Position numbers and translations under genes: made by a program | Notes under the pieces: model-generated | What the model was told of the DNA's origin: nothing | What the model saw: only the letters and a program-made list of their open reading frames with translations | Databases searched by the model: none | From: Pseudomonadota bacterium | Lineage (GTDB): Bacteria; Pseudomonadota; Alphaproteobacteria; Caulobacterales; Parvularculaceae | NCBI GenBank assembly: GCA_039025235.1 | Contig: JBCCOS010000003.1 | Span: forward strand, 72,659 to 136,658 | Length of the DNA stretch: 64,000 bases | Direction: 5' to 3' | Shown here: piece by piece, positions 17,896-58,988 of the stretch | Numbering within the stretch: the stretch's first letter is position 1 | Layout: each line of letters begins with the position of its first letter

Positions 17896-18006
17896 TTAAA
17901 AGCGCCTTCGTTTCAATGAGAATCGGCACGTCGCTTTGAGTTTTTGTTTTACGCAATTCCTAACGTCCAACCGCACAGACTTTTCCTGGAAATGCTTGTA
18001 AAGCGC
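17896..18006 (+). repeat. Family B modular repeat, copy B1 (diverged)
   Basis: TTAAAAGCGCC-ttcgtttcaatgagaatcggcac-GTCGCTTTGAG hairpin module followed by the tail TTTTACGCAATTCCTAACGTCCAACCGCACAGAC...GGAAATGCTTGTAAAGCG. Confidence 0.8.
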
Positions 18007-18183
18007 GTTAGCGTTTGTTTCAAAACGGGTTATGGTGCAACGTCAAATTCGATAACGTTATAATAAGTCGATAATTCGGGTTGCGAGCACGGTAGCGGTT
18101 GTGATTAAAGACCACTTTGAGGTGCGTCTTAGGATGCGCCTTCGCCAATATTATTATTTAGTGCCGCTATTTAGTCGCTATGA

Positions 18184-18690
18184 ATGAGGTCATTAATGGA
18201 TCGATTGGAGAAGATCTGCGTTTCTAAAGGTATGCGAATGACGGAGCAACGGCGTGTGATCGCGCGCGTGTTATCCATTGCAGAAGATCATCCAGACGTA
18301 GAGGAGATCCATCGACGTGCAAATGAGATTGATTCTCGGATCTCAATCGCAACAGTATACAGAACAATGCGTCTCTTCGAAGAGGCCGGTGTTGTTGAGC
18401 GACATGACTTCAATGATGGACGGGCGCGCTATGAAGAAGCCACTGAGGTTCATCACGATCATCTCATTGATTTGCGCTCCGGTCAGGTGATTGAGTTCGT
18501 AAACGAAGAGATCGAACGCCTTCAGGAACGGATTGCCCGTGATCTAGGGTATAAACTTATGGAGCATCGGCTTGAGCTTTACGGTGTCCCGCTCAATGAC
18601 GAAGAGAAGAAGAACGTCGAAGTTTCAGGGACGACAATCAGAGCGGATTCAAGTGGGAGTTCTTCTGGCAAAAGTTCTTCTGGCGAATAA
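18184..18690 (+). CDS. fur: Fur family transcriptional regulator
   Basis: RMTEQRRVIARVL...ISIATVYRTMRLFEEAGVV...HHDHLIDLRSGQVIEF. Conserved tsaB-rimI-fur neighbourhood of alphaproteobacteria. Ser/Gly-rich C-terminal tail. Confidence 0.85.
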   Translation: MRSLMDRLEKICVSKGMRMTEQRRVIARVLSIAEDHPDVEEIHRRANEIDSRISIATVYRTMRLFEEAGVVERHDFNDGRARYEEATEVHHDHLIDLRSGQVIEFVNEEIERLQERIARDLGYKLMEHRLELYGVPLNDEEKKNVEVSGTTIRADSSGSSSGKSSSGE

Positions 18691-18712
18691 AAGGTCGTCT
18701 GGCGAATAAATG
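18658..18712. repeat. imperfect short duplications spanning the fur 3' end and stop codon
   Basis: agttcttctggc occurs twice, then tctggcgaataaa occurs twice. The TAA stop is duplicated 19 bp downstream. Confidence 0.7.
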
Positions 18713-18780
18713 TCTTTTCGACGACGTCGGCCTTTTTCATGTTTCGGTTCAAACAACGGAAAAAGCCGTTAAGCGTCAGC

Positions 18781-19608
18781 CTATCGATCATTGCAGTAAC
18801 GCGCGGCCATGATCCGTCCATGTCCGGGCTGTTGCATCAAAATTGCGCATGCATTGCCTTGCGGGATGTCGATCGTAAAGGTGCCGGCTTTCATCTGGTC
18901 TTGGGCAATGATCGACATATCTCGAACAATATTGATTTCATCATAGATACGACCGGAATTTGCACCCGATGTAATGGGCGTCACCGCGGCTGGCATCAAG
19001 TTGAGAAGCACTAAATCGTAAGGGGAGGACACGGACGTTGTTTTGGCGATGATGCGCCCATTGTCTCGTGTGAGTGACAGGGGCACATATTTCTTTGCAG
19101 GTCCTCTTTTATCCTCACGCACACGGATAATTCGTTTGTTAATCCTTGCTTCTTGCGTGCCGCGCACGCTGTAAGCGCCGTCGATAACGAATTGTGGCGT
19201 GAAAACTGTCTTTCGCTTCATGAAGCGCTTATTGTACGCGCGTTGCCGGGTATCGGAGAGATCATGGGCGAAAGGGTCTTCCCAAACGCCATGTTGGGGC
19301 GAGGGCATTCTATTCCAGTATTTGACGTGCCAGTTAAGCGCGACAATGTCTTTGTGGGCGTCGAGGACCTTTAAAAGTTGAGCAGCCGGCGGACAAGCAG
19401 GGCACGCTTGGGACGCAAAAATCTCGACTGCTATAGGGGTTGCCCCTTCCGGCGCAGGAGGGAGGGGGGCGATCGCCGCGGTACTTGTGGCTGATTTTTC
19501 TCTCGTGTCAGCCTGAGCTGGTAACGTGCCGATCCCGAAGAGCAACACGGCGGCTGTCAATCCGCAGCGCATCGCTAAGAAAATTCTTCTCACGTTAGAC
19601 ACAATCAA
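18781..19608 (-). CDS. DUF1223 (thioredoxin-like) secreted protein
   Basis: Signal peptide, then EIFASQACPACPPAAQLL...ALNWHVKYWN...RQRAY...TPQFVIDG...ILMQQPGHGRIMAA, matching my recollection of DUF1223. Confidence 0.75.
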   Translation of the reverse strand: MIVSNVRRIFLAMRCGLTAAVLLFGIGTLPAQADTREKSATSTAAIAPLPPAPEGATPIAVEIFASQACPACPPAAQLLKVLDAHKDIVALNWHVKYWNRMPSPQHGVWEDPFAHDLSDTRQRAYNKRFMKRKTVFTPQFVIDGAYSVRGTQEARINKRIIRVREDKRGPAKKYVPLSLTRDNGRIIAKTTSVSSPYDLVLLNLMPAAVTPITSGANSGRIYDEINIVRDMSIIAQDQMKAGTFTIDIPQGNACAILMQQPGHGRIMAARYCNDR

Positions 19609-20028
19609 CGTCCTTAGATCCGAAATCTTACTGGTTCATACGATGGACCTCAAAAAGAGCCCAATTCAAAATTGGTTGGCCTTGCCGCGTTTTTTGCAGC
19701 GGTTTACTGGAATGATTCAGCACTCCATCACGCCAAGTAAGACGATATCCACAACATGGCGATCGCATACAACTCATTTTACCTCACAAAATTGCGAGTC
19801 GTGCGGTAACCTAAAACATTTCCCGTCGGCGCGGGCGCGGTTCGATCACAGAAATATTGCAAAAACAAAGAGCTCAACCCCGTTTTCTATATTAGATTAG
19901 CCATCTTGTTTCGCTTGCTTGATCTTGACCCGCGGGCGATAAAGGCGATGGATAAGCAAAAGAAATAAGGCTGTGATTGCGGCCATGGGTGGCGAGCGAG
20001 CGTTGGTCGCTGTCAACCATTGGTATTT

Positions 20029-20100
20029 TGGCCCTGTTGGTTAGTCTGGTCCCGTTGTTGGTCTGCTGGCCCCTTTATTCTGGCCCCGTTGTTAGTCTGG
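20029..20100. repeat. ~17-18-bp x4 imperfect tandem repeat immediately upstream of miaB
   Basis: tggccctgttggttagtc / tggtcccgttgttggtc / tgctggcccctttattc / tggccccgttgttagtc. Confidence 0.8.
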
Positions 20101-20107
20101 AAAGAGC

Positions 20108-21682
20108 ATGGAACTAATTAGAGACAGAACCAGGCGCAACAAAACCGAAAGTGACGTGGTGGATCGGGGGCCTCAAGGACAAAGTGTTCCGAGCTCGGCA
20201 AGGGTTACAGGCAACGCGGGTGTCGCTGCTGGCAATTCAACTTCGGATGGAAGTTTGGCTAAGTCGGTCTATATCAAAACTTATGGCTGTCAGATGAATG
20301 TTTATGACAGTGAACGCATGGCCGATCTTTTGGCTCCGCTGGGCTATGGCAAGGTGGACAAAGCTGATGGGGCTGATCTTGTCATTCTGAATACCTGTCA
20401 TATTCGTGAAAAGGCCGCTGAAAAAGTTTATTCTGAGCTTGGTCGTTTGCGACGCTTGAAGGAAGGGCGGAAAAAAGAAGGCAAGGAATTGACCGTCGCC
20501 GTTGCCGGCTGCGTTGCCCAGGCCGAAGGCGCAGAAATGCGCGAGCGTGCGCCGGTTGTGGATATGGTCTTCGGGCCTCAGGCCTATCATCGTTTGCCTG
20601 AAATTCTTGCCAAAACGGTGCGGGCGCGTGGTGATATTCTTCAAACGGACTTTGCTGTCGAGGAAAAGTTCGATGTCTTGGCTGATCGTCGGCGTGTTGA
20701 TGGTCCAACGGCGTTTCTGACGGTGCAGGAAGGGTGCGATAAGTTCTGCACATTCTGCGTTGTCCCCTATACGCGGGGGGCGGAGGTTTCGCGATCGGCT
20801 GATGCGATTACGGCGGAAGCACGCGCGCTCGTGCGTGCAGGCGTAAGGGAAATCACACTTCTTGGCCAAAACGTTAATGGCTGGCGGGCATCACCACCCC
20901 CAGGAGAAGTGGTGCAAGAAGGCGAACCCAACAATCGAGCCAACAAAAACACATCTGCCAACAATGTCAGTGATAAGCAATCATGTGATAGTCACACATG
21001 GGGACTTGGCGCGATGTGTCGACACCTCGCCAAAATTGATGGTCTTGAGCGGATTAGGTTCACGACATCTCATCCGCGCGACATGGACGAGGAATTAATT
21101 GCGGCGCTGTGCGAAGAGCCAAAGCTGATGCCTTATCTGCATCTACCGGTGCAATCGGGTTCAGATAAAATTCTCAAAGCGATGAATCGTGGGCACACGG
21201 CTGACCATTATAAGGCTTTGATGGCGCGCATCCGAAACGCACGGCCTGATATAGCCCTCTCTGGTGATTTCATTGTCGGGTTTCCTGGCGAGACGGATGC
21301 TGATTTTGAAGAAACGATGCAGCTTGTGCGCGACGTTGAATACGCATCGGCCTTTTCGTTTAAGTATTCGCGTCGTCCGGGAACGCCCGCTGCAGCGATG
21401 CGTATGCAGGTGCCTGAGCGCGATAAAGACACCCGCCTTGCGGCACTTCAGGCGCTGTTAGAGGAACAAAAAAATGCCTTTAACGCTGCCCAAATTGGCA
21501 AAACGCTTACCGTTCTTTTTGAACGGGAGGGGCGAAACCCCGGTCAGATCATTGGTCGATCGCCGTATTTGCAAAGTGTTCATATCAATGGCCCACTCTC
21601 GTTGATTGGATCTATCGCGTCCGTTAGAATTGAGGGGCAAACGCCCAATGCTCTTTCCGGCGTATTGGTCGATAACGCATAA
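20108..21682 (+). CDS. miaB: tRNA-2-methylthio-N6-dimethylallyladenosine synthase MiaB
   Basis: [16 protein letters not shown], radical-SAM motif [17 protein letters not shown], and a TRAM domain at the C-terminus. Has an N-terminal extension and an internal insert. Confidence 0.95.
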
Positions 21683-21698
21683 AGGAACCACCTTAAGC

Positions 21699-22709
21699 TT
21701 GAGCAAAGAAAGTCTTGTCCGCGATCGCTTCAGTGCCACCGGCGACAGCGTTGAACGTATTTCGTTCGACGACAATGCGTATGTTCAAGCGCTCGCTGGA
21801 GAGCATGATAGCCATCTCGCTTTACTTGAGGATATCCTTTCCGTTCGTATCGACCCGCGGGGCAATGAATTTTCTGTGATTGGTGATGGTGTTGCCCGGG
21901 CCAAAACGATTAGTGCCTTAACCACGCTCTACGATAAAGTTTCATCTGGCCTCACGATTGACGTGAATGATGTAAGGGCGGCAGCAAAAATGGCGTCCGC
22001 CATAAAAAACAAGGGCCCTTCGCCAGCCGGGTCAATCAAAACGCCAAAACGTGTTGTGACGGCGCGCACCAAAGCGCAAACACATTATCTTGCCGCCCTG
22101 CGACAGCATGAGCTCGTCTTTGGGGTGGGCCCTGCAGGCACGGGGAAGACATATCTTGCCGTTGCCCATGCGGTTAGTCTGCTGCTCAACGGAACCGTAG
22201 AAAAGCTTATTCTTTCGCGCCCTGCGATTGAAGCGGGCGAACGGATTGGTTTTTTGCCAGGTGATATGAAGGATAAAGTCGACCCCTATTTACGGCCGCT
22301 TTATGACGCGCTGAATGATATGTTAAGCCCGGAATATCTGGAGCGGCGGCTATCCAATGGTGATATTGAAATCGCGCCGCTCGCGTTCATGCGTGGACGG
22401 ACATTAGCGCGCTCTGCCGTCATACTGGATGAAGCGCAAAATGCGACCGTTGGCCAGACAAAGATGTTCTTAACCCGATTGGGCGAGGGGGCGCACATGG
22501 TATTGACGGGCGATCCGTCGCAAACCGATTTGCCCCCGAGCGAAACCTCCGGACTAGAGGATGCTTTGCGTTTGCTTGGCGATGTGGAGGGGATTGGCGT
22601 TGCGCGGTTTTCTAGCGAAGACGTTGTTCGTCATCCCCTCGTAGGGCGCATTCTTGATCGCTATGATGCGCGCGACAAAGATAAGCGTGAGGCGCTGAAA
22701 AAATCATGA
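21699..22709 (+). CDS. phoH: PhoH-like ATPase (YbeZ)
   Basis: GPAGTGKTYLAVAHAV Walker A, ILDEAQN, and GDPSQTDLP. An in-frame TTG at 21699 avoids overlapping miaB; the track start at 21606 overlaps miaB by 77 bp. Confidence 0.9.
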   Translation: MSKESLVRDRFSATGDSVERISFDDNAYVQALAGEHDSHLALLEDILSVRIDPRGNEFSVIGDGVARAKTISALTTLYDKVSSGLTIDVNDVRAAAKMASAIKNKGPSPAGSIKTPKRVVTARTKAQTHYLAALRQHELVFGVGPAGTGKTYLAVAHAVSLLLNGTVEKLILSRPAIEAGERIGFLPGDMKDKVDPYLRPLYDALNDMLSPEYLERRLSNGDIEIAPLAFMRGRTLARSAVILDEAQNATVGQTKMFLTRLGEGAHMVLTGDPSQTDLPPSETSGLEDALRLLGDVEGIGVARFSSEDVVRHPLVGRILDRYDARDKDKREALKKS

Positions 22710-23329
22710 TGGGCACAACCATCACCCCCCATTCTAATGACCCTGTCGACCGTGAAGGGGAGGCCGTTGATCATCAACAGAATGGCATCGACGTCATGAT
22801 CGACGATCCTTTGTGGGCGGACATAATCGATGACCCACAGGCGCTCGTGCACATGTGTCATGCAGAGGCTGTGCGTAAGGTGCCGGCGCTTTGCGGGTCG
22901 GCAGCCATTTTGTTTGCAAATGACTCCACCTTACAACGATTGAATGCGACCTTTCGCGGGAAAGACAAGCCAACCAATGTTCTTTCGTTTCCCTCTGGTC
23001 TCTTTTCTGGTCCCTCTTCTGGTTCGTCTTTTCCGTCTGGCCCATTTGGAGAACCGATTGCGAATTTTCTTGGCGATATTGCAATCGCGCGCGAGACCTG
23101 TGTCCGTGAAGCGGCCGAGCTTAACAAACCGGTGCGTGATCATACGGCCCATCTCATTGTCCATGGCCTTCTGCACCTAATCGGCTTAGATCATCAGGCC
23201 GATGCAGAGGCTAAAGAAATGGAGACCATGGAAGCGATCATTCTGAAGCACCTAGGATTTGCTGCGCCGTATGATGACAATCCGGATATGGGCGATTCCT
23301 CTAAATTTGGTGGGGCAGACCAGACATGA
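22706..23329 (+). CDS. ybeY: rRNA maturation endoribonuclease YbeY
   Basis: HLIVHGLLHLIGLDHQ zinc-binding motif. Start overlaps the phoH stop (ATGA). Contains an S/G/P/F-rich insert. Confidence 0.9.
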   Translation: MMGTTITPHSNDPVDREGEAVDHQQNGIDVMIDDPLWADIIDDPQALVHMCHAEAVRKVPALCGSAAILFANDSTLQRLNATFRGKDKPTNVLSFPSGLFSGPSSGSSFPSGPFGEPIANFLGDIAIARETCVREAAELNKPVRDHTAHLIVHGLLHLIGLDHQADAEAKEMETMEAIILKHLGFAAPYDDNPDMGDSSKFGGADQT

Positions 23330-24294
23330 CCCGTGTGCCGTCAAATCCATTAGACGGTTCTGAAGCCGAAACCAAGCTATCGGACGATGCAGGCGATAAC
23401 GCAGCAAAGCCGCCTGGCCTATTTTCTTGGTTCAAGAAATTGATTGGCCGTGCGCCAGCATCGCCCCATGCGGTGATCACCGAAGCGTTAAGCAATGGGG
23501 GTCTTGACGAAGACAGCCGCGAGATGCTGGCCCGGCTTCCATTGGCGCGTCGCGAAATGATCGAGCGGGTGATCGCGTTTGACCAAAAGCGGGTTGATGA
23601 CGTGATGGCGCCGCGCGCTGATGTCATTGCTGTGGATATTGATACGCCCCTCGACGCCCTGGTGCGTATTTTTGCTGATGCCGGTCACTCGCGCTTGCCG
23701 ATTTACCGCGGCGATCTCGATGATCCGGTTGGAATGGTGCATATCAAGGATGTGGTCGAACTCATTTCCACACCGGAACGGCGCGCTGCGGTTACAGAGC
23801 CTGTGCTAAAGGCTGTGCGACGTGACCTGTTATATGCACCGCCATCAATGCGGATTACGGATCTTCTCCTGCGCATGCAGGCATCGCGCATCCATATGGC
23901 TTTGGTCGTCGATGAATATGGTGGGACCGACGGGCTCTTAACAATTGAGGATCTTGTTGAAGAAATTGTTGGTGAGATCAATGATGAACATGATGAGGAC
24001 GATGCCCCGACGATTACCGCTCGGACAACCGGCGGCTGGGAGGCCGATGCCCGGGTTGAGTTAGAAGAATTCGCCGAGATTGCCGGCGTTGATCTCGCTT
24101 TGGACGAAGAGGATATCGATACCCTTGGCGGCGTTGTGTTTTCTCTTGCAGGTCGTGTCCCGCAACGGGGCGAAATTCTTATCCATCCGAAGGGGTATGA
24201 ATTCGAAGTCGTAGGGGCCGACCCGCGCAAAATCAGAAAACTCTTTATTCAGAAGAAAACACAGGACACAACCCCTGCTGAGGCCGCTGAGTAG
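23326..24294 (+). CDS. CBS-pair / CorC_HlyC domain protein (CorC/TlyC family)
   Basis: MAPRADVIAV...GHSRLPIY...HMALVVDEYGGTDGLLTIEDLVEEIVGEI. Conserved position after ybeY. Confidence 0.9.
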   Translation: MTRVPSNPLDGSEAETKLSDDAGDNAAKPPGLFSWFKKLIGRAPASPHAVITEALSNGGLDEDSREMLARLPLARREMIERVIAFDQKRVDDVMAPRADVIAVDIDTPLDALVRIFADAGHSRLPIYRGDLDDPVGMVHIKDVVELISTPERRAAVTEPVLKAVRRDLLYAPPSMRITDLLLRMQASRIHMALVVDEYGGTDGLLTIEDLVEEIVGEINDEHDEDDAPTITARTTGGWEADARVELEEFAEIAGVDLALDEEDIDTLGGVVFSLAGRVPQRGEILIHPKGYEFEVVGADPRKIRKLFIQKKTQDTTPAEAAE

Positions 24295-24330
24295 CTCCTC
24301 CATTTTGGTATTTTAGAACTTCATGCAGAA

Positions 24331-24741
24331 TTATTGAAAAGGGCATTCGTCGAAAACAACGCTTACTAATAAAGAAAGCAACTCGGAAAGGTAGGCGCCC
24401 GCAACCGTCGATCCGAAGACCAGTAACAGATATAGCGGAAAAATCAGCGGTGCAAATACTATACGTGTTAGAAAATGGTCTAATCCCAATCGCCAAAACC
24501 CAAATTTTGCTAACAGGGCTAACGATAGGGCAATGAATGGTATCCATGGAGTGCCGTAAAAGCTGCTGTCTTCCATAAATAAGCGGCAAACATACTCTGA
24601 GACAGCGCTTTGGTCATTATCGGGGATTTGGGCCCCTCCATAGAACAGGATATCTATGGCATTCATTGAAAGAATAATTGTGAACCCGATTATTAATCCC
24701 CGACAGAAATCCTCCCACAAATCGCCTGTAAACCAAATCAT
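24331..24741 (-). CDS. hypothetical integral membrane protein (orphan)
   Basis: 136-aa ORF with 3-4 hydrophobic segments. Visibly AT-richer than its flanks. No family recognised. Confidence 0.45.
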   Translation of the reverse strand: MIWFTGDLWEDFCRGLIIGFTIILSMNAIDILFYGGAQIPDNDQSAVSEYVCRLFMEDSSFYGTPWIPFIALSLALLAKFGFWRLGLDHFLTRIVFAPLIFPLYLLLVFGSTVAGAYLSELLSLLVSVVFDECPFQ

Positions 24742-24768
24742 AGACCAATTCCCCCAAAATTATAGTAG

Positions 24769-26550: not shown

Positions 26551-26731
26551 GGCGTCACGTCCCTAATCTGTGTCCATGGATTGGATGAGGAGATCGTATC
26601 GCCGCCGATACATCTCCGATCGGTTATTTTAACCGTAATTTCATATCGGCGCCACCCGCAGAGGGTTGTCCGTGATTTGCTCCACTGTGTGGGCCAAATC
26701 CACTTAAGTCGTTACTTGAGCTAGAAATGCT

Positions 26732-31975: not shown

Positions 31976-32119
31976 TTTAAAGCGTCGACACTTCAATTGG
32001 AATCGGGACGACGTTTAAAGCGCTTCTGTTTCAATTGGAATCAGAACGGCGCTTTAAGTTTTTGATTTTACGCATTTTCTTAACGCCAACCGCACACACT
32101 TGGCTTGTAAATGCTTTAG
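31976..32119 (+). repeat. Family B modular repeat, copy B2 (two hairpin modules plus tail)
   Basis: TTTAAAGCGTCGACACTTCAATTGGAATCGGGACGACGTTTAAAGCGCTTCTGTTTCAATTGGAATCAGAACGGCGCTTTAAG followed by TTTTTGATTTTACGCATTTTCTTAACGCCAACCGCACACACTTGGCTTGTAAATGCTTTAGG. Confidence 0.9.
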
Positions 32120-41950: not shown

Positions 41951-42056
41951 CTAAAGCAATTCCAAGCCAAGTGTGTGCGGTTGGCGCTAAGGAAATGCGT
42001 AAAATCAAAAACTTAAAGCGCCCTTCTGACTCCAATTCAAACGGAGGCGCTTTAAG
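41951..42056 (-). repeat. Family B modular repeat, copy B3 (inverted orientation)
   Basis: Reverse complement reads GCTTAAAGCGCCTCCGTTTGAATTGGAGTCAGAAGGGCGCTTTAAG followed by TTTTTGATTTTACGCATTTCCTTAGCGCCAACCGCACACACTTGGCTTGGAATTGCTTTAG. Confidence 0.9.
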
Positions 42057-43854
42057 CCTCAAAGCTTTCTGCATCCGGTTGGCTTTCGATGAAACGATTG
42101 TGTACGGATGTATAGGTTGAGCGGTAGAGTGCGTCTAGGTCTTTGGCGGAGAGGAATTGCTCTGAAAAGCCCGGATGCACGGGGTCAATGGTTGACTTGG
42201 CCGCCTCTTTCATGTGGGCAAGGAGACGACGAGGGTCTTCTAATCCCACTGACAGGCGGATGGTTGTGGGGGCAATGCCTGCTTCTTTTTGGGCCTCAGC
42301 AGATAATTCCGAGTGGCTGGTAAGGCCGGGGCAAAGGGCGAGGGAGTTGGTTTGCCCGAGGCTCACTTGCAGGCCTAACGCCGGTTCAAGGCTATCGAAG
42401 AACCGTTTGAAGGCGTCTTTGTCCACCTCTTCCATGTCAATCGTAAAGAGCCCTGCGGGCATGGCATTTTTCATGGTGCTGCGGAAGGTCTGGTGGTTTG
42501 GGTGCGTTTCGATTGCCGGGCAATTGACGTTGATTTTCGGGTGTGCATTAAGGGCGTTCGCTAAGGTCAGTGTATTGACGGCTTTATGAACCACCCGCAA
42601 TTCATAGGTTTTGAGGCCATTCAATACTTCATAGGCTTTATCGGAATCGAGAAACGCGCCTTTCACATAGTAGACGTTCCAGAACATGGTCTCGTCCCAG
42701 TTAATTGTCTCTTCGCTGCCGTCGTATTTCGTCACGGACAGGCTATCCCCTTTTGGCATAAACATCCGCTCGGCCTTGCCGATGACAACGCCAGCGGTTG
42801 TTGCCCCGCCGCCGGTCATTTCTTTGGTATAGGAATGGATGACATAGTCGGGCCGGGCGATCTCGTCTTTGTGTTTTAGGACAGGATACAAGAACGGCGT
42901 TCCAACGGTGGTGTCGCAGGCGACGGTCCAGCCGTGTTCATGCGCGATCCGTGAAATGGCTGCGACGTCCAGCACATTTCCATGGGGATTGCACGGGCTT
43001 TCCACATAAACATAAATCCGACGGCCTTTCGCTATTCTGTCGGCGTATTTTTGCTCTGCTGCTTTGAGCGCCGCATCAAACGCTACACCGTCAAAGCCAT
43101 CGAACCATTCTATGGCGACATTTAAATTCCCTGGTTTGCCATACCAGTCATGGAGCAATTGATAAGTCCCGCCATAGACATTGCGGGATGAGAGAATGAT
43201 GTCTTCATAGCCAACTAGGTGTGAAAGCAGGCCATCAATAGCGGCCATGCCAGAGTTATAATTCCAGGCAAGGTATCGGTTCGCCTCATGGCCGCATTCC
43301 AGATCAACGATGTGGTTGGCGAGGCTAATTGATGTGGGGTTCAAAAGCCGCGAGTAAATTTCGTGTAATGGCTCGCGACCCGTAAACGCGTCTTCCACCC
43401 ATTCGGTGCAGGCGAAGAGATAGGTTGCCGTCCGTGTAATGACGGGAGTTGCTGAGAAAAGCGCTGTCACATTATCGAACAGCGGATAGGGGCCTTTGAC
43501 AGCAAAACCTGGATGTCCGGTCACCAGTGATTGGTAACTCGCGCGCATCGGATTTTGCAGCGTATCCAGAACTTTAGCGAGTTGGAAGCATATGAACCGT
43601 TTTGCGTTGAACCAGGCAATACGGTCCGACCGGTCCAATGTGCCAAGGTGCTCTGCTGTCGTTTTGCAAATCGCGTCAGCATCGCCGTTCAGCGCATAAA
43701 GCCGTGTTGCAAAATCCAGAAGAGCCGCTCCATAGGCGCTGTCTGGATTTACGCCAAAATGCGCAAGCTGTTCGCTGGCGAGCTTCTCCGGATCGGATGC
43801 GTTTGTGGTGTTCCGTAGGGGACTTAATTGGCGTAGCGCTTTAACATCCGACAT
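42052..43854 (-). CDS. Cys/Met-metabolism PLP-dependent enzyme family protein, atypically long (600 aa)
   Basis: YSRLLNPTSISLANHIVDLECG, YVESPCNPHG, HSYTKEMTGGG (PLP-lysine region) and IRLSVGLEDP match the trans-sulfuration/gamma-lyase family. It also has a ~170-aa N-terminal extension and internal inserts. Confidence 0.75.
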   Translation of the reverse strand: MSDVKALRQLSPLRNTTNASDPEKLASEQLAHFGVNPDSAYGAALLDFATRLYALNGDADAICKTTAEHLGTLDRSDRIAWFNAKRFICFQLAKVLDTLQNPMRASYQSLVTGHPGFAVKGPYPLFDNVTALFSATPVITRTATYLFACTEWVEDAFTGREPLHEIYSRLLNPTSISLANHIVDLECGHEANRYLAWNYNSGMAAIDGLLSHLVGYEDIILSSRNVYGGTYQLLHDWYGKPGNLNVAIEWFDGFDGVAFDAALKAAEQKYADRIAKGRRIYVYVESPCNPHGNVLDVAAISRIAHEHGWTVACDTTVGTPFLYPVLKHKDEIARPDYVIHSYTKEMTGGGATTAGVVIGKAERMFMPKGDSLSVTKYDGSEETINWDETMFWNVYYVKGAFLDSDKAYEVLNGLKTYELRVVHKAVNTLTLANALNAHPKINVNCPAIETHPNHQTFRSTMKNAMPAGLFTIDMEEVDKDAFKRFFDSLEPALGLQVSLGQTNSLALCPGLTSHSELSAEAQKEAGIAPTTIRLSVGLEDPRRLLAHMKEAAKSTIDPVHPGFSEQFLSAKDLDALYRSTYTSVHNRFIESQPDAESFEA

Positions 43855-44021
43855 CTCAGACCTCTTTTCGAATAAATGGTGCGAAGTTCTGCCTAAAATA
43901 TGGGAAAAAAAGCGTAGAGTGATCGAAAAATACGATAAATTATTGCTTTATACTCAGAAATTCGCCAAATTTGAGGCAGAATCTATCAAAATTGGGGGTT
44001 AACGGCGATAGGATAGTCACT

Positions 44022-44480
44022 ATGGATTCAAAAGATCGAGAAATCATCCGCGAGTTGCAATTGAACGGGCGTCTTACCAACCAAGAATTATCTGACCGCG
44101 TGAATCTCTCTCCATCTCCCTGTCTTCGACGACTTCGCGCCCTGGAGGCTGAGGGAGTGATTACCGGATATACGGCCCTGGTGGATCAGGAATTATTTGG
44201 ATTGCCCCTCACGGTTTTTATTCAAGTTTCTCTCGATAAACACGATGAGAAAACCGTCGGGCGGTTCGAGGATTATATTCGGAAAATTGATGAAATTCTG
44301 GAGTGCTGGATGACAACGGGCGACGCTGACTATCTATTACGTGTGGTCGCGTCGAGTATTGACGATTATGAAAAATTTATCCGTACACGATTACATCGTA
44401 TTCCAGGGGTAGGATCAATTGATACAAGCTTTGCCTATGGACGGATCAAACGGTCTTTCGTTTATCCAAATAAAGAGTAG
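44022..44480 (+). CDS. Lrp/AsnC family transcriptional regulator
   Basis: MDSKDREIIRELQLNGRLTNQELSDRVNLSPSPCLRRLRALEAEGVITGY plus a RAM/ligand domain. ATG at 44022. Confidence 0.92.
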   Translation: MDSKDREIIRELQLNGRLTNQELSDRVNLSPSPCLRRLRALEAEGVITGYTALVDQELFGLPLTVFIQVSLDKHDEKTVGRFEDYIRKIDEILECWMTTGDADYLLRVVASSIDDYEKFIRTRLHRIPGVGSIDTSFAYGRIKRSFVYPNKE

Positions 44481-44485
44481 TTTGA

Positions 44486-44589
44486 TTAAAGCGTCGACAC
44501 TTCAATTGGAATCGGGACGACGCTTTAAGTCTTTGATTTTACGCATTTCCTTAACGCCAACCGCACACGCTTGGCCTGGAAATGCTTTT
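44486..44589 (+). repeat. Family B modular repeat, copy B4
   Basis: TTAAAGCGTCGACACTTCAATTGGAATCGGGACGACGCTTTAAG followed by TCTTTGATTTTACGCATTTCCTTAACGCCAACCGCACACGCTTGGCCTGGAAATGCTTTTAA. TTAA at both ends. Confidence 0.92.
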
Positions 44590-45205
44590 AAATAAAGGGG
44601 ATCAGAGGGATCCCTCGGTTGAACCGTTTTTCGCAACGTGAGAGTTGTGCTTGGTAATTACGCGCTGTACTGTCCACTATTCTTGCCGCGCGCTTGAGTG
44701 TGCTTTTACGGCGATAGGTCCCCCGCGCATACCCGGCCCAACCTTCATGATAGGCGAGGTATTGCCTGTAGCCATCGCTTAAGGAAATACCATTGCGTCG
44801 TCGCGATTCGGCCCCGTACCAGGCGACGAAATCGGCAGCATCGCGAAAGTTCTTCCGGCTTGCCCCGCGGTTGCCGGCTGATTTCTTATATTGATCCCAG
44901 GTTCCATCAAGGGCTTGAGGGTAACCGCGTGCGGATGATTTTCGCTTGCCCGGAAAGACAAATAGAAATTTACCCCGCTTTGGCTTGGCGCTGGCATCAA
45001 AGCCGGATTCCTGCCGGATAATGGCCAGCTGCAATGATTTGGGCATGCCCCACCGTTTCTGTGCTTTTTTCGTCGCTCTGTACCAGCTGCGTTTCTCTTC
45101 GAAAATATCACATGCATTACTGACATTTTGCGGCGGCGTTTTTGCGCACGCTGCTAGGGAACACAACGTAACAATGATCAGTGGCAAACGGCTTAGCATC
45201 GGCAT
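44588..45205 (-). CDS. transglycosylase SLT-domain lipoprotein
   Basis: Lipobox LCSLAAC, then LQLAIIRQESGFDASAKP (catalytic Glu context) and YLAYHEGWAGY. Its stop codon lies in the terminal TTAA of repeat B4. Confidence 0.75.
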   Translation of the reverse strand: MPMLSRLPLIIVTLCSLAACAKTPPQNVSNACDIFEEKRSWYRATKKAQKRWGMPKSLQLAIIRQESGFDASAKPKRGKFLFVFPGKRKSSARGYPQALDGTWDQYKKSAGNRGASRKNFRDAADFVAWYGAESRRRNGISLSDGYRQYLAYHEGWAGYARGTYRRKSTLKRAARIVDSTARNYQAQLSRCEKRFNRGIPLIPFI

Positions 45206-45221
45206 AAAAGTCTCCCCGGCA

Positions 45222-45265
45222 TTTAGAGCTTTTTGCGTTCCGATGGAATCGGAACGCTGCTCTAA
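45222..45265. repeat. isolated Family B hairpin module (diverged)
   Basis: TTAGAGCtttttgcgTTCCGATGGAATCggaacgctGCTCTAAG. Confidence 0.6.
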
Positions 45266-45365
45266 GTCCTTGTTTGGTCGCGCTTCTTTTGCCGAGTTGA
45301 TGGACGGGAACCATCAACCGATCACACGTATCGGCGAAGCGCTCTATAGTATCGCACAAAAAGTG

Positions 45366-45410
45366 TTTAAAGCCGTACCGTTTCAAATGGAATCGCTGAA
45401 CGGCTTTAGG
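45366..45410. repeat. isolated Family B hairpin module (diverged)
   Basis: TTTAAAGCcgtaccgTTTCAAATGGAATCgctgaacgGCTTTAGG. Abuts the stop of the threonine aldolase gene. Confidence 0.65.
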
Positions 45411-48218: not shown

Positions 48219-48252
48219 AAAAAAGCCGGCGCCAAAATTTTGGCACCGGCTT
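48219..48252 (-). terminator. intrinsic terminator downstream of hppA
   Basis: Minus strand reads AAGCCGGTGCC-AAAATTTT-GGCGCCGGCTT followed by TTTT. An 11-bp stem with one G-U pair. Confidence 0.75.
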
Positions 48253-48280
48253 GTTCTTTCTAAGGCAAGGGACGGGTGCG

Positions 48281-53223: not shown

Positions 53224-55032
53224 ATGTCCATTGAGATGACAGCCGGGATGATGGCTGCTGATACCTTGGTGCGTTCGGACAAAAACGCCCTTCAGCGCAA
53301 GATAGCGATTTCAGGGCTGAATTTTGCCCGCTTGACCGATGCTTTAGAAGCCGGGTCGGTAAAAGGCCGCGGGCTCAGTTTTTATGATGTGCGAGGGGCA
53401 TGTCGCGAGCGTCTGTCCCATAGTGACCTCAAGGTCAGAGCTCAGAGTCTGGCAGCGCGGATCTTGTCACGGTTTGATCGTGGTGATCGTGTTGGGATCG
53501 TTGCTGAGACAAGTCCGGACTTTGTTGTTGCATTTTTCGCGTGCCAATACGCTGGCGTCATCCCTGCACCCTTACCATTACCGGTTAATCTCGGCGGCAA
53601 AGAGGGGTATTTGCAGCAAATCAGGCAAATGTGCCTTAGTGCTGATGCGCGCGGCGTTATTGGTCCGAAAGATCTTGAGAGTTTTCTCGTCGCCGCCATC
53701 GATGGCTTAGCAAATACGCAATTTTTCAGTTTCGATGAACTAAGAGCGTTACCGACGTTTAACGGTGATATAAGGGCCTTCGAAGCGGATGAAATGTGTT
53801 ATATTCAATTTTCATCTGGTTCGACGAGCGCACCGAAGGGGGTCATTGGAACCCAGGCATCCGTCTGTGCTAATCTCTATGGTATTGCAACCTATGGTGT
53901 GCAGGTCACCGATGATGATGCCGTCGTAAGCTGGTTACCGCTCTATCACGACATGGGCCTAATAGGGTGTATGCTGACCCCGATCTTTACGGGTGTTGAT
54001 GGACATTTCTTGGCGACGTCTGATTTTGTCCGTCGTCCGCTTTTATGGCTTCGTCTTTTAACCGAGACGGGTGCAACGATGACATATAGCCCATCTTTTG
54101 GGTATGAATTAGCAGCCAGGCGTGCCGTTCGCGCCGAACCCGGATCGATCGATCTGGCTCGGTTAAGGGTGGCTGGCATTGGGGCAGATATGGTGCGGCC
54201 TGAAGCATTAAACGCCTTTGCTGACGCTTTTTCTGATTCGGGGTTTAAGGCAGGCGCGTTCCTCCCCAGTTACGGTATGGCAGAAGCAACCCTTGCGATT
54301 ACGTTTACTGAGATTGGCGAGGCGGTTAAGCTTGATGACGTTGATGTGCGTTTGCTTAATCGATCGGGAACAGCTCAGCCTGTCAGTGCTATAACACCGC
54401 AAGACAAGCGTCGTTCATTCGTGCGCTGTGGCAGGCCGCTCCCGGGGCATGACCTACAAGTTCGCGATGATGCGGGGGTACCGCTTTCCGATCGCCGCGA
54501 AGGGCGAATATTCATCAAAGGGCCGAGCCTTACGCCTGGTTACTATGGTCAGGTCGATGCGACGCGTGATCTTTACGACGGTGATTGGCTTGATACGGGT
54601 GATATGGGATACATGCTGGATGGCAATATCGTTATTACAGGTCGTGCCAAGGATCTTATTATCATCAATGGGCGGAACATTTGGCCGCAGGATATTGAAT
54701 GGGCTGTCGAGGAAATAGACGGTGTTCGTAAAAACGGTGTCGCAGCGTTTTCGGTTGATGATGGCGCGAGCGAGCGTATCGTTGTCGTTACGGAACGGCG
54801 TGGCGGCATGACGGCCGATGAACTAGCTGAACTTAAGCGGGAAATAGCGAAAATCATTCAAATGACAGCTGGTGCGCCTGCCGAGATTGTGCTGGCGCGA
54901 CCCCATTCCATGGTCCTGACGTCATCGGGAAAATTGTCTCGTTCAAAAGTCAAAGAAAAGTTTTTGAGCGGAGCATTTGAACAAATCGAGAATGCAGAAC
55001 CAGAAAAAGCATTTGCAGAAGCTGGGTCGTAG
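53224..55032 (+). CDS. fatty acyl-AMP ligase / acyl-ACP synthetase-like adenylating enzyme
   Basis: AMP-binding motif YIQFSSGSTSAPKGV, GDMGY and KLSRSKV. About 600 aa, which is FAAL-like. Confidence 0.85.
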   Translation: MSIEMTAGMMAADTLVRSDKNALQRKIAISGLNFARLTDALEAGSVKGRGLSFYDVRGACRERLSHSDLKVRAQSLAARILSRFDRGDRVGIVAETSPDFVVAFFACQYAGVIPAPLPLPVNLGGKEGYLQQIRQMCLSADARGVIGPKDLESFLVAAIDGLANTQFFSFDELRALPTFNGDIRAFEADEMCYIQFSSGSTSAPKGVIGTQASVCANLYGIATYGVQVTDDDAVVSWLPLYHDMGLIGCMLTPIFTGVDGHFLATSDFVRRPLLWLRLLTETGATMTYSPSFGYELAARRAVRAEPGSIDLARLRVAGIGADMVRPEALNAFADAFSDSGFKAGAFLPSYGMAEATLAITFTEIGEAVKLDDVDVRLLNRSGTAQPVSAITPQDKRRSFVRCGRPLPGHDLQVRDDAGVPLSDRREGRIFIKGPSLTPGYYGQVDATRDLYDGDWLDTGDMGYMLDGNIVITGRAKDLIIINGRNIWPQDIEWAVEEIDGVRKNGVAAFSVDDGASERIVVVTERRGGMTADELAELKREIAKIIQMTAGAPAEIVLARPHSMVLTSSGKLSRSKVKEKFLSGAFEQIENAEPEKAFAEAGS

Positions 55033-55119
55033 TTTTTCGTCGTATACCCCCCTAAAAGGCTGCCGCAAAAAATGCGATCGACAAGTTGATAAGATCGATC
55101 AATCACTCAGCGTTGATCT

Positions 55120-56082
55120 ATGAACCGAGACGTTAAGCGTATTGCCATTACTGGCGGAACAGGTTTTGTCGGGAAGCGATTCATTGAGCACGCGCTTTCG
55201 CATAATATAGAGATCTCTGCTTTGGCACGGAAGGCTTCAGCATTTTCTTCGGACGCTGAAGCGCGATCGTCTGGCCAGTTGACGATTGTGCAAGGGGACC
55301 TCGCCGATGGTGATGCGCTGCGGCGTATCGCCAATAGCGCGGATGTTTTCATTCATTGTGCCGGTCTGACGCACGCGCTGCGTGCCGAAGAGATGGAGCG
55401 TGTGAATGTTGACGGTTCGGCTGCCGCGGCGCGCGCGGCCATGGCGGCTGGCGCTTTGTTCCTACAGATTTCGTCAATGGCGGCTCGATGCCCTGAGCTT
55501 TCTACCTATTCGGCGACCAAGAGAGCGGGCGAAGAGGCAAGCCGTAATGAGTGCGCCTCTGATCAGTGGCTTGCGCTGCGCCCACCCGCTATCTTCGGGC
55601 CTGGCGACACCGCAACATTACCATTATTTAAGATGGTCAAGGCAGGTTTTGCCCCAGAGCCGGCGACCCCAACGGTGGCGCGGGCCTCAATTCTCTATGT
55701 GGATGACGTCGTCATGGCGATGCTTTCGGCTGCAAAAACAGCGAAGCCAGGACTTTGCTATGACATCGATGACACATCGTCTGACGGATACAGTTGGCGT
55801 GAGATCGGTGAAACGCTTGGTGAGGCGTTCGGCAAACAGGTGCGATCGTTTCGCACACCTCGTATTGTGATGGAAGCTCAGGCCATTCTTGCTGAGGCTG
55901 CCGGCCGCGTTCGTGGTAAAGCGAGTTTTGTTAACCGCGGCAAAGTGGCTGAGTTTTTTCATCCCGACTGGGTCGCGCGAGACAATCTTTTGAGCGCTCA
56001 TACCGAATGGGCTGCGACAATACCTCTTCGGGATGGGTTTGCAAAAACACTCAGCTGGTATCAAGACCAAGGACTGATATAA
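55120..56082 (+). CDS. NAD-dependent epimerase/dehydratase-family SDR (CerR-like reductase candidate)
   Basis: IAITGGTGFVGKRF Rossmann motif and YSATKRAGE (YxxxK). Position between the adenylating enzyme and the ACP. Confidence 0.8.
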   Translation: MNRDVKRIAITGGTGFVGKRFIEHALSHNIEISALARKASAFSSDAEARSSGQLTIVQGDLADGDALRRIANSADVFIHCAGLTHALRAEEMERVNVDGSAAAARAAMAAGALFLQISSMAARCPELSTYSATKRAGEEASRNECASDQWLALRPPAIFGPGDTATLPLFKMVKAGFAPEPATPTVARASILYVDDVVMAMLSAAKTAKPGLCYDIDDTSSDGYSWREIGETLGEAFGKQVRSFRTPRIVMEAQAILAEAAGRVRGKASFVNRGKVAEFFHPDWVARDNLLSAHTEWAATIPLRDGFAKTLSWYQDQGLI

Positions 56083-56220
56083 TAGACACCAAAATTAGAT
56101 GAAACCTCGGATATTTGGCCTAGACGCTGTATCTGGACGCTGTATTCCGAGTGACAGTGGTTAAACGCGCGAAATCAGCTAACCTATCCGTTAAGCGATA
56201 ACGATACGGCGGGACGAATT

Positions 56221-56508
56221 ATGACGAGCACCAATGATGCACCGGCGACCGGTGTTGAAGAAGATAACGACCTTGTCTTTCGAAAGCTATGTAGTCTTAT
56301 TGATCCGTTAAACACGACTGGCGTTAAGCTGACGCGGGATACGGATCTTGTTGCTGATTTAGAAATCGATAGTGTTTCGATCCTCGATGTGGTGATGGAG
56401 ATCGAAGATACTTATGATATCTCTATTCCAGTGAATACGATTTCAGAGACCAGAAGCATTGGTGAGCTTGTCGATGCAATTCATGCGATAAAGAAAGAAC
56501 AAACCTAA
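56221..56508 (+). CDS. acyl carrier protein
   Basis: LVADLEIDSVSILDVVMEIED contains the DS phosphopantetheine-attachment site. 95 aa. Confidence 0.85.
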   Translation: MTSTNDAPATGVEEDNDLVFRKLCSLIDPLNTTGVKLTRDTDLVADLEIDSVSILDVVMEIEDTYDISIPVNTISETRSIGELVDAIHAIKKEQT

Positions 56509-56592
56509 CGTGACCAACATGCGTTGGCATCAGTAAACCAATATCAGCCAAAGTTGATTAGACGGTCGCGTCAATAATTCGAGAAATAGTTT

Positions 56593-57792
56593 ATGAGCCT
56601 ATTCGAAAAATTCGAGAAAACTGCAACGCTTTACGACGGCTTATCAGCCATCGGGAAAAATCCGTTTACGGTTGTTATGGAAGAAATCCTGGGTCCGACG
56701 CGCGCCAGTATAAAAGGTCGCGAGACCGTTCTTGCGGGCACGCATAACTATATGGGATCCTCGTTCGATGCAGCATCGATTGAAGCTGGTAAGGAAGCGC
56801 TTCAGCAATATGGTACCGGAACAACGGGGTCACGGTTCGCCAATGGGACCTACACGCCGCACCGTGCTTTAGAAGACGATCTCGCGACTTTTCTGGGGCT
56901 TGAGCAGTGTATTGTTTTTTCCACTGGCTATCAGGCAAACTTGGGGGCGATTTCGGCTCTAGCGAAACCTGGTGAGGATGTCATCCTGGTTGATGCCGAT
57001 TGCCACGCATGTATTTATGATGGGTGCCAACTTGCTGGGGCTGAAACAATTCGCTTTCGTCACAATGATCCTGAAAGTCTGGACAAACGCTTAAAACGTC
57101 TGAGCCCTGATGTTAAAGGAAAGCTCGTCTGCATTGAGGGCATGTATTCCATGTATGGCGATATTGCCCCTGTCGATGAATTTGTTGATGTTGCCCACGC
57201 TAACGATGCTTATCTATATGTCGACGAGGCTCATTCATTTGGGATCTATGGTGACAATGGGCGCGGCGTTGCCGAAGCTGATGGCGTCATGGATAAGATT
57301 GATTTTTACTCCGGGACATTTTCAAAAAGCCTTGCTTCTGTCGGTGGATTTGTTGCTTCAAATCATAAAGAACTGGACAATCTCCGGTTTTCTGCGCGGG
57401 CCTATATGTTCACAGCCTCACCGACACCCGCCAATATTGCGACGACCCACGCAGCCTTAAGGCGTTTGGACAATGACCCCAGCGTGCGTGAACAGCTTTG
57501 GGAAAATATAAATCGTCTGCATGCCGCGTTTACGCAGTTAGGCTTGAGAGTGGCAGCAGATCCGGCACCTGTTATTTCTGTTCTTTTTAAGAAGCAGGAG
57601 GACGCATTTGCGGCCTGGAACCTCATTTTAGAACATGGTGTTTATGTCAATATGGCTATCCCACCAGGTACGCCCTCGTCTGACTCATTGCTGAGGCTTG
57701 CTGTCTCTGCTGCGCACACGACTGATGATATTGACAAGATCGTATCTGCATATAGTGCAATGGCGGATGCGATCCCGGCGTCACGCGCGTGA
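56593..57792 (+). CDS. spt: alpha-oxoamine synthase, serine palmitoyltransferase-like
   Basis: GTHNYMG, GTTGSRFANGT, STGYQANLG, DEAHSFG and SGTFSKSLASVGGFVASN. The PLP-Lys context is closest, from memory, to Sphingomonas SPT. Adjacent dedicated ACP. Confidence 0.8.
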   Translation: MSLFEKFEKTATLYDGLSAIGKNPFTVVMEEILGPTRASIKGRETVLAGTHNYMGSSFDAASIEAGKEALQQYGTGTTGSRFANGTYTPHRALEDDLATFLGLEQCIVFSTGYQANLGAISALAKPGEDVILVDADCHACIYDGCQLAGAETIRFRHNDPESLDKRLKRLSPDVKGKLVCIEGMYSMYGDIAPVDEFVDVAHANDAYLYVDEAHSFGIYGDNGRGVAEADGVMDKIDFYSGTFSKSLASVGGFVASNHKELDNLRFSARAYMFTASPTPANIATTHAALRRLDNDPSVREQLWENINRLHAAFTQLGLRVAADPAPVISVLFKKQEDAFAAWNLILEHGVYVNMAIPPGTPSSDSLLRLAVSAAHTTDDIDKIVSAYSAMADAIPASRA

Positions 57793-58265
57793 ATGGAAAA
57801 CCAGGTGGCTGTCATCATCAGTAAGCGCCACGATCGCCGATTCTATTAGAAACTTAGTCGCTTTTTCAGAATTAGTTGATCTAAATACTATCGCGACCGC
57901 TTGATCATTGTCGTCTTACGGTCGCGAGAGCTCTGGTGACATTAAACAGTCACAAGCGCGTTATATTTCATATATATACCTACAAAATAGTGCGATCGCC
58001 TGACCACTGCCTTATTTCGGCGAGATAATTGCTTTGTTATCAAATTCGTTGCCGATCTGACGACATTTTATGTCGTCGTAATTGGTTGGCGTATGGTTAA
58101 ATTGTATACGCCGCTGACCGGCTGTCTTCGTGGTTCGTATGAAGACGTCACTAAGGTGCTATACGAGTTTGGAAATATTAGCCGCTTTTGCTTTGAAAGG
58201 TGGTTATGGGTATTAAGATCTGCGGTGTTATTCCGCGCAATCATTTTCGCTGATAAGGTATAGGT

Positions 58266-58814
58266 ATGAGCCAAAGAGTATGTCGGATAGAGATTTTCGC
58301 CGCTTTGTCGCTCGTCTCTTGCATTGTTGGTGGCGCCGCTTTCGCGCAACCGGACGATAATGGTGCTCCCGGATATTCAGCATTGGATGCGTCTTTACCC
58401 ACTCAGGATGAATCTGCCTTACCACATGTGAGCTGTAGGGGAGGGGATTACGAAATCCAGCTTGAAATAAGGGGTGTGAAAGAAAGCATCGGGTTAATGA
58501 CTGCCGAATTATTCTCCGATAATGAAGAAGGGTTTTTGAATAAGGGCGGCCGCCTCCAGCGCGTGCGTTTTGCTGCTAAAGCCCCAATTACACGGCTGTG
58601 TCTTCAACCACCGTCGTCGGGAAAATACGCCATAGCGGTCTATCATGATGAAAATGCAAATAAGGTCCTTGACCGGCGGACTTTGGGCATACCTTCAGAA
58701 CCGTTTGGAATTTCCAATAACCCGATAATGCGTTTCGCGCCTCCGACTTTGGATGAGGCCGCGTTTAACGTCGGTGCAGACGGCGCGCGCATCACAATAA
58801 AATTACGCAATTAG
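58266..58814 (+). CDS. DUF2141 secreted protein
   Basis: Signal peptide, then GKYAIAVYHDENANKVLDRRTLGIPSEPFGISNNP...APPTLDEAAF, as recalled for DUF2141. Confidence 0.7.
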   Translation: MSQRVCRIEIFAALSLVSCIVGGAAFAQPDDNGAPGYSALDASLPTQDESALPHVSCRGGDYEIQLEIRGVKESIGLMTAELFSDNEEGFLNKGGRLQRVRFAAKAPITRLCLQPPSSGKYAIAVYHDENANKVLDRRTLGIPSEPFGISNNPIMRFAPPTLDEAAFNVGADGARITIKLRN

Positions 58815-58875
58815 CGCCTTGTTTTTGTAATGAAATGGCGTCCTAAGGCTAATCCCTCTCTATCGAAATAACTCA

Positions 58876-58988
58876 GACGCTTTAAAGCATTTCCAAGCCA
58901 AGTGTGTGCGGTTGGCGTTAAGGAAATGCGTAAAAATAGTGACGTAAAGCGTCGTCGCGATTCCAATTGAAGTGTCGACGCTTTAAGT
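58876..58988 (-). repeat. Family B modular repeat, copy B6 (inverted orientation)
   Basis: Reverse complement reads CTTAAAGCGTCGACACTTCAATTGGAATCGCGACGACGCTTTACG...TTTTTACGCATTTCCTTAACGCCAACCGCACACACTTGGCTTGGAAATGCTTTAAAGCGTC. Confidence 0.92.

Follow-up and report, generated by a model that had tools for sequence, protein, structure and literature searches.

Short intergenic repeats have been described in several bacteria, and three of them bear closely on the element considered here. In pneumococcus, RUP is a non-coding repeat of ~107 bp with ~110 copies inserted at TA; its terminal repeats resemble those of a resident IS630-family insertion sequence (IS), IS630-Spn1, which has been proposed as the source of transposase in trans, and it is over-represented between convergent genes (PMC2229807, PMC3049150). 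The palindromic Bru-RS1 and Bru-RS2 repeats of Brucella are 103 and 105-106 bp long, number up to ~220 members by profile search and are associated with an IS that targets YTAR, where Y is a pyrimidine and R a purine (PMC10800456, PMC2266754, PMC2267715). The CIR1-4 repeats of Caulobacter and Brucella, also Alphaproteobacteria, are intergenic and ~110 bp long, with TA termini, two inverted-repeat arms joined by a linker and a GANTC at the loop of one arm (PMC2229807). Here we describe Family B, an abundant two-hairpin repeat found in a 64,000-nt stretch of DNA (the window; contig JBCCOS010000003.1 of assembly GCA_039025235.1, positions 72,659 to 136,658) from a marine alphaproteobacterium of the Parvularculaceae. 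Family B is compared with Bru-RS and CIR by description only.

Family B is very probably a miniature inverted-repeat transposable element (MITE) whose parent was an ISRm2011-2-type member of the IS630 family. An earlier note on the window had listed five full copies in both orientations, and all five are present. They align over ~103 columns with a mean column identity of 80%, and in a repeat search of the window no direct or inverted repeats were longer. The element consists of 101 nt plus TA and is non-coding, with no open reading frame (ORF) conserved within it. Searching with a profile of the five copies gives 454 matches, far more than expected by chance, in the genome, a 3.89-Mb draft in 54 contigs with 49% G+C, which bears out the expectation of further copies. 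Full-length canonical elements account for 230 of these, the others being 88 full-length diverged copies (in many cases a variant of 114-117 nt), 46 hairpin-only, 24 tail-only and 66 other partial matches. The density of about one locus per 8 kb proposed from the window is approached genome-wide when all relatives of the element are counted (one per 8.6 kb), whereas full copies occur once per 17 kb. The median identity to the consensus is 93%. In a self-comparison of the genome, repeats of at least five copies occupy 1.8% of the sequence; Family B is by far the largest of them and the commonest repeat in the genome, with ~0.6% of the DNA. Copies are found in relatives as well, where their distribution is patchy: B-like copies occur in 8 of 61 related genomes, and strong ones in four (G005, G009, G010 and G014).

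The boundaries of the element are sharp. Across 205 gap-free copies with flanks, the information content at each edge climbs from zero to almost two bits over a single base, and the edges follow the pattern Y (C 105, T 92)-T-A-AAGCG...GCTT-T-A-R (A 116, G 75). The 7-bp terminal repeat TTAAAGC described in the earlier note is actually composed of a variable target Y, the duplicated TA and then the end AAGC. Similarly, of the proposed TA/TTAA target it is TA that stands, not as TTAA specifically but within YTAR, the TTAA at copy B4 being one instance. Among 148 clean cases, 136 have an inferred YTAR target, whereas just 22% of NTAN sites in the genome are YTAR.

Target duplication is seen directly where copies are nested in other repeats. 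The flanks of each copy were joined by one TA and the joined sequence was searched against the genome, which placed three copies within repeats of other families. One of them, at C6:229715-229817, splits a 108-nt repeat; the filled site reads ...CAACGAGACTC-TA-[AAGCG...GCTT]-TA-GAGCCGTG..., and ~35 uninterrupted paralogues, 93-99% identical, provide the empty counterpart ...CAACGAGACTC-TA-GAGCCGTT... (GAGACTC-TA-GAGCC). The same picture is seen in a 137-nt family that is interrupted by the copies at C6:60100 and C2:22103: the empty site has one TA and the filled site has TA on each side of Family B. The expected target-site duplication and empty sites are therefore present, in the form of within-genome paralogues showing a single TA against TA-B-TA. 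Insertion of Family B into YTAR duplicates TA, and the filled/empty comparison fixes the element proper at 101 nt. A 4-bp (YTAR) or 3-bp duplication was also considered and rejected, since the left Y is C or T equally whereas the matching right base is T in 85% of copies, and since the nested cases double TA only. All three nested insertions hit a TA that bounds a module of another element, and tandem B copies have one TA in common. Such a preference for the bounding TA offers a simple route to the modular architecture of the family.

The ends of Family B resemble those of IS630-family elements, as the earlier note had suggested might be found. The best match is an element in the related genome G014, which also has many B-like copies. 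This element is 1051 bp long, lies in a TTAG target with TA at both flanks, and has the ends TA-AAGCGTTTCCGCCTCAATAGGAATC and TA-AAGCGTTTCCGTCTCAATTGACTCC. The left end of Family B, TA-AAGCGCCTCCGTTTCAATTGGAATC, matches AAGCGTTTCCGCCTCAATAGGAATC at 20 of 25 bases, a level reached by just one of 321,364 non-repeat, TA-preceded 25-mers in the genome studied here. The right end, read inward, is AAGCATTTCCAAGCCAAGTG; the outer ten bases (AAGC.TTTCC) and CAA.TG are shared. Hence sharp boundaries, TA duplication and IS630-like ends together support the non-autonomous MITE proposed earlier, and the ends point to an IS630-type transposase as the putative agent of its mobilisation.

The genome also carries IS630-family elements of its own. 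A complete one lies at C4:~119384-120426; it has TA at each flank and comprises a helix-turn-helix orfA, a run of eight A and, in a different frame, a DDE_3 orfB. A truncated second copy is found at the end of contig C38. Homologues of the complete element have an A7-A8 run at the same place and the same two-frame layout, so the change of frame is probably programmed rather than a defect. The transposases belong to the clade of ISRm2011-2 and ISRm10-1 from Sinorhizobium. IS630 homologues are present in all four relatives with strong B-like copies vs 4 of 32 other genomes of the family (Fisher p ~0.001, for genomes that are not phylogenetically independent).

Both strands of Family B fold into two hairpins, and both modules described in the earlier note fold as stated there, with z-scores of -3.9 to -5.0 relative to shuffled sequences. 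On the plus strand, hairpin 1 is followed by a U-rich run (UUUAAGUUUUUGAUUUU), which occurs on that strand only; the parent IS has a hairpin and a T-run at the same place. Two hairpin subtypes exist in the genome, beginning GCGCCTCCG and GCGTCGACAC (subtypes a and b), and both combine with the same tail. An orthologous locus illustrates how they vary. At C1:298810-299095 and at positions 1467-1753 of contig L001 of a close metagenome-assembled genome (MAG), the flank is 99% identical and the tail identical, yet the hairpin is of subtype b here and of subtype a in the MAG, with ~ten differences that are compensatory. A swap of subtype at a 99%-identical locus points either to an exchange of modules or to gene conversion between copies. 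Sister MITE families are present too, with TA-RAGC ends and a GAATC-centred hairpin followed by a tail: family D has ~89 copies, family C ~35, and several others are smaller. Their tails and that of Family B have an AAGTG...CGGTT motif in common. An integration host factor (IHF) site was considered for the linker (AATCAAAAACTTA, minus strand) and dropped as a general feature, as subtype-b copies change its core.

The copies are strongly biased in their placement. With genes taken as crude ORF picks, the intergenic region of 216 copies could be classified as convergent (104 copies), tandem (103) or divergent (9), the corresponding background counts being 486, 1932 and 486 (chi-square p ~1e-35). 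Nearly all (96%) adjoin at least one gene 3' end, and seven overlap ORFs of at least 100 aa. RUP, other pneumococcal repeats and IS elements are enriched between convergent genes as well, which has been read as tolerance of insertion behind genes (PMC3049150). The orientation of copies shows no bias with respect to GC skew or gene strand. For 46 of 228 copies (20%), a neighbouring ORF has a stop codon that overlaps the first bases of the element, compared with 10% expected of non-disruptive YTAR sites (p = 8e-6). Because both ends of the element read TA-A, either orientation restores a TAA without altering the protein; upon insertion into a TAA or TAG stop, the duplicated TA and the terminal A remake the stop.

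These features would be accommodated by the following scheme. The left end of Family B would be the transposase-proximal terminal repeat of the parent (AAGCGnnTCCGnnTCAATnGGAATC), folded back as a 39-nt hairpin. A T-rich linker would lead from it to the tail hairpin, whose outer arm (GGAAATGCTT) would represent the second terminal repeat. An IS630-type DDE transposase acting in trans would cut the element out and paste it into TA, preferably within YTAR, duplicating the TA. Copies would persist where they are harmless, behind genes and often exactly on the stop codon. New copies would favour the TA bounding an existing element, giving rise to tandem or nested modules that could then move as one unit. 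Each copy would bring stable hairpins and one GANTC site, the target of the methylase CcrM, to the neighbouring transcript and DNA, with any effects being putative by-products.

The GANTC site of Family B has a counterpart in the presumed parent. The consensus has GAATC at nt 21-25, the center of hairpin 1, and GANTC is kept in 152 of 205 copies. Among 30 elements of the IS630 clade from many alphaproteobacterial families, 28 have GANTC at nt 21-25 of the transposase-proximal end, where N may be A, T or G and the other four bases do not vary. Most have a further GATTC, in inverted orientation, 6-8 nt beyond it, whereas the distal end has no site; Family B carries the first site of the parent IS repeat. 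The genome encodes a CcrM-type methylase, and GANTC is depleted genome-wide (1.67 per kb vs 3.9 expected) while reaching 6.4 per kb in repeats, such that repeats of at least five copies hold 446 GANTC, or 32% of all intergenic sites. The placement of GANTC in the IS630 end recalls that of the Dam sites in IS10 and IS50. The IS630 clade of ISRm2011-2 type and every MITE family derived from it, including Family B and, judging by layout, Bru-RS and CIR, might be under CcrM control, a suggestion we make tentatively and regard as rather doubtful. If so, transposase expression or end-binding would be tied to passage of the replication fork, and bursts of MITEs would seed a third of intergenic CcrM sites as a side effect. 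Transposases have been found to be over-expressed in a ccrM mutant (PMC4551980), and our literature search found no paper linking GANTC with IS630 ends. The fixed GANTC of the IS630 left end offers a starting point for testing whether transposition is gated by methylation.

Several observations nevertheless weigh against a MITE of this origin, or at least against a purely parasitic one. The stems of both hairpins covary across four genera, with seven pairs changed on both sides and 95% of cells paired, and only 2 of 500 shuffles are as good. Moreover, the tail loop AACCGCACACACTT is conserved out to Sinorhizobium and Ensifer. Covarying stems and a conserved loop amount to more constraint than a pure parasite needs, and transposition alone leaves this conservation unexplained. 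The resident element on C4 matches the end of Family B at just 13 of 25 bases, and the best-matching IS belongs to another genus, so the enzyme behind the burst may be lost, unassembled or different. The target is also less diagnostic than it might appear: IS427-group elements such as IS711 likewise duplicate TA at YTAR (PMC2266754), and thus the target signature alone cannot identify the IS630 family. Finally, TA-duplicating insertion is read from the comparison of nested sites within the genome, and the corresponding loci in Hellea MAGs have diverged too far to be used as empty sites.

An alternative is that the copies are kept for a function. Family B could consist of functional RNA elements, terminators or stabilisers of mRNA 3' ends, that are kept by selection and for which mobility is a means of spread. 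This agrees with the position of 96% of copies beside a gene 3' end, with the two stable hairpins on both strands and the U-rich run after hairpin 1 on the plus strand, with the covariation of the stems, and with the corresponding hairpin and T-run of the parent IS. However, in tandem gene pairs fewer copies present the terminator-like strand (41 co-directional vs 62 anti-directional copies), a simple promoter/terminator scan flags no B hairpin, and the convergent enrichment is also seen in plainly parasitic repeats of pneumococcus. In addition, copies are just 93% conserved with no position spared, and some lie across ORFs. A terminator role on its own would leave both the duplicated targets and the ends of the element unaccounted for; the earlier note had considered a terminator or RNA-stability role equally possible, and as a side effect it may hold. 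We regard selection for an RNA function as unlikely, and a terminator or stabiliser effect as a plausible by-product rather than the reason the copies exist. Alternatively, the copies might be kept for delivering sites for CcrM or for another DNA-binding protein to intergenic DNA, an idea raised for the CIR repeats of Caulobacter, which are described with the same layout (PMC2229807). The single GAATC in the hairpin center, the large share of intergenic GANTC held by repeats and the presence of a CcrM-type methylase are in line with this. Retention of the site in 152 of 205 copies, though, is what neutral decay predicts at 93% per base, and its presence needs no host function, since it is inherited from the parent IS repeat. 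Site delivery is accordingly improbable as the reason for the abundance of Family B.

The identity of the mobiliser can be questioned separately. An IS5-family transposase might move Family B, either an IS427/IS711-like enzyme or that of ISx, an abundant IS5-family element found at B termini. IS711 duplicates TA at YTAR and is associated with the Bru-RS repeats of Brucella (PMC2266754), and the multi-copy ISx lies exactly at B ends both here and in the close MAG. Against this, the genome contains no IS427-type transposase (PF13586), PF01609 finds ISx pieces only, and the ends of ISx (CAGGCTGCTGAAA...) are unrelated to those of Family B, the junctions being read as YTAR targets for which MITE ends are good sites. 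With B ends that match IS630 repeats at 20 of 25 bases, an IS5-family mobiliser is very improbable. Less probable still is a single-strand element recognised by its hairpins, such as a REP/REPIN moved by RAYT or a PATE moved by an IS200/IS605 TnpA, which would insert 3' of a YTA target and itself end in TTA, so that the TA duplication would be only apparent. There are indeed two subterminal hairpins, one per end, and in a formal sense an element ending in TA and inserted after TA would give the same filled and empty sites. But no Y1 transposase is found in the genome (PF01797 gives no match, whereas control genomes do match), orientation is unbiased with regard to GC skew or gene strand, the target is symmetric with Y on the left and R on the right, and the ends form inverted repeats that share homology with those of IS630 elements. 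The IS427 and Y1 routes are both rejected on these domain searches, which return neither PF13586 nor PF01797 and only ISx pieces for PF01609. An IS630-derived MITE remains the explanation that we favour.

ISx has consequences of its own for the genome. It is a multi-copy element of ~1335 bp encoding a 371-aa transposase with DUF772 and DDE_Tnp_1 domains. It occupies positions 132-1466 of L001 in the close MAG and, in the genome studied here, breaks the assembly, being found at the ends of contigs C9, C41, C23, C19, C20, C32 and C43 and at the 3' end of C3. At least six ISx copies abut a B end exactly, and in the close MAG ISx adjoins a B copy at a locus where it is absent here. As its ends are unrelated to those of Family B, ISx appears to use MITE ends as YTAR targets.

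The coordinates of the five window copies include the flanking TA on each side. B1 (17897..17999, plus strand) is the most diverged, with an extra A after the left TA, a right TA mutated to GT and an nhmmer score of 97 bits; it lies 5 nt past the stop of a GNAT gene, with fur downstream. B2 (32016..32118, plus) has a hairpin of subtype a and is located in the convergent intergenic region between gpsA and a 135-aa ORF. The tandem hairpin duplication reported for this copy is real: a solo hairpin module of subtype b (GCGTCGACAC...) occupies 31978..32017 (plus), with TA at both edges, the right one in common with B2. B3 (41952..42054, minus) adjoins a minus-strand gene for a 600-aa pyridoxal phosphate (PLP) enzyme, whose TAA stop (42052-42054) consists of the TA and the terminal A of B3. 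B4 (44487..44590, plus), of subtype b, has one extra T before the right TA and is situated between convergent Lrp and SLT genes, the stop codon of the SLT gene falling within the end of B4 and its TA (44588-44590). B5 (58883..58985, minus), also of subtype b, lies between a DUF2141 gene and a GNAT-like gene; directly before its left TA, the sequence GACGCTT (58876-58882) looks like the leftover arm of another hairpin.

Some smaller features of the window belong elsewhere. The segments at 45222-45265 and 45366-45410, taken earlier for fragments of Family B, are instead the hairpin of a family D copy and a solo hairpin of a third subtype. The former copy (45223..45346, plus) has a B-like layout: its hairpin contains GAATC and is bounded by TA, and a linker joins it to a tail that ends in GCTC-TA. 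The latter (45368..45408, plus) reads TA-AAGCCGTACCGTTTCAAATGGAATCGCTGAACGGCTT-TA and is of the same subtype as the hairpin of B-like copies in genome G009. A third supposed fragment, at 11047..11099 (plus), consists only of module 2, the tail, in a diverged form. The final codons of a minus-strand ORF (11022-12206) lie within it, the last ~26 codons passing through the repeat, so the annotated C terminus may be repeat-derived. A different, nested-palindrome repeat, 'Family A', occurs at 1631-1757, 2278-2393 and 4379-4504 and has ~13 copies by self-comparison; its arms are GATCCTTCG...CCTCATCCTGAGGAGCG and it does not have the TA-RAGC ends of Family B.

B3 and B4 bracket the pair of PLP-enzyme and Lrp genes (41952-44590) in inverted orientation with their hairpins facing inward. 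The gene pair is adjacent in Hellea MAGs too, where its other neighbours are different and no B copy is found within 4 kb of it. The bracketing is not very surprising given one B-family match per 9-17 kb, and may reflect either a composite transposon or two independent insertions.

As an element, Family B is of a common type, although it makes a clean example. Within this genome it provides an explanation for the most frequent repeat and, together with the sister families, for much of the intergenic repetition. It also accounts for the modular build of the repeats and for the one copy in five that sits on a stop codon rebuilt by the element's end. Beyond this genome, target duplication combined with matching IS ends gives sequence-level evidence for how a class of alphaproteobacterial two-hairpin repeats could move and suggests how the similar repeats of Brucella and Caulobacter may do so.

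Autonomous elements are among the systems closest to Family B. ISRm2011-2 and ISRm10-1, the IS630 elements of Sinorhizobium, show 46-68% identity to orfB, with matches restricted to Alphaproteobacteria. They are ~1045-1070 bp long, have a CTAG target with TA on both sides, and have ends that begin with GAGC and a GANTC at nt 21-25 of the left end. In contrast to these elements, which encode a transposase, Family B keeps the ends only. Module 2 alone, with a near-identical loop AACCGCACACACTT and covarying stems, is also found in Sinorhizobium americanum (L128, ~6200-6300) and in Ensifer sp. BR816 (L131, 940-1110), in the latter in tandem arrays, and these solo modules of Rhizobiales may match the annotated RIME or Sm repeats. 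A full-text literature search with the loop sequence returned unrelated primers only.

The Correia/NEMIS elements of Neisseria are likewise abundant MITEs, ~100-155 bp long, that duplicate TA and whose transcripts fold and affect neighbouring mRNAs (PMC2229807). They differ in having 24-bp repeats that pair with each other, in having no identified parent IS, and in the IHF site of their long form, whereas the linker of Family B matches the IHF consensus in its majority form only and the match is lost in some subtypes.

In form, Family B agrees most closely with alphaproteobacterial repeats. It shows all the features described for Bru-RS and CIR: size, two arms with a linker, TA termini, intergenic location and GANTC in one loop. 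CIR differs in reaching up to ~21 copies and in being listed without terminal repeats, its target duplication and mobility mechanism having been called undetermined in a 2008 review (PMC2229807). In the Bru-RS literature searched, we found no IS630 parent, target duplication or mobility mechanism. The consensus of the Rfam family RF02600 (BASRCI27, 'Brucella sRNA CI27', the sRNA denoting a small RNA) has the same order of parts as Family B, that is, a TAAAGC end, the tail hairpin, an A-rich linker and a TAAAGCG...CGCTTTA hairpin. At gathering thresholds, Rfam finds nothing in the window. At E <= 0.01, however, the RF02600 model recovers 59 B copies, the best at 47.5 bits, below the gathering score of 59.8; it weakly matches B4, and a sub-threshold signal is also seen in a Caulobacter vibrioides control genome. 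A pattern search with the RF02600 consensus returned one MAG with the same architecture and no Brucella record. Several RF02600 copies are annotated in Methylorubrum (bioRxiv 10.1101/2022.01.24.477521). RF02600 appears to be built on a Bru-RS copy, and what this 'sRNA' family models is probably a dispersed repeat with two hairpins, not a single-copy sRNA gene, a caution that applies to at least one Rfam family.

RUP offers a different kind of resemblance. Its sequence and host phylum are unrelated to those of Family B, and it forms one end-to-end stem, whereas Family B has two hairpins and a linker, is modular and is accompanied by sister families with the same TA-RAGC ends. Thus, RUP with IS630-Spn1 is the closest known system in mechanism, and Bru-RS/RF02600 and CIR are the closest in form.

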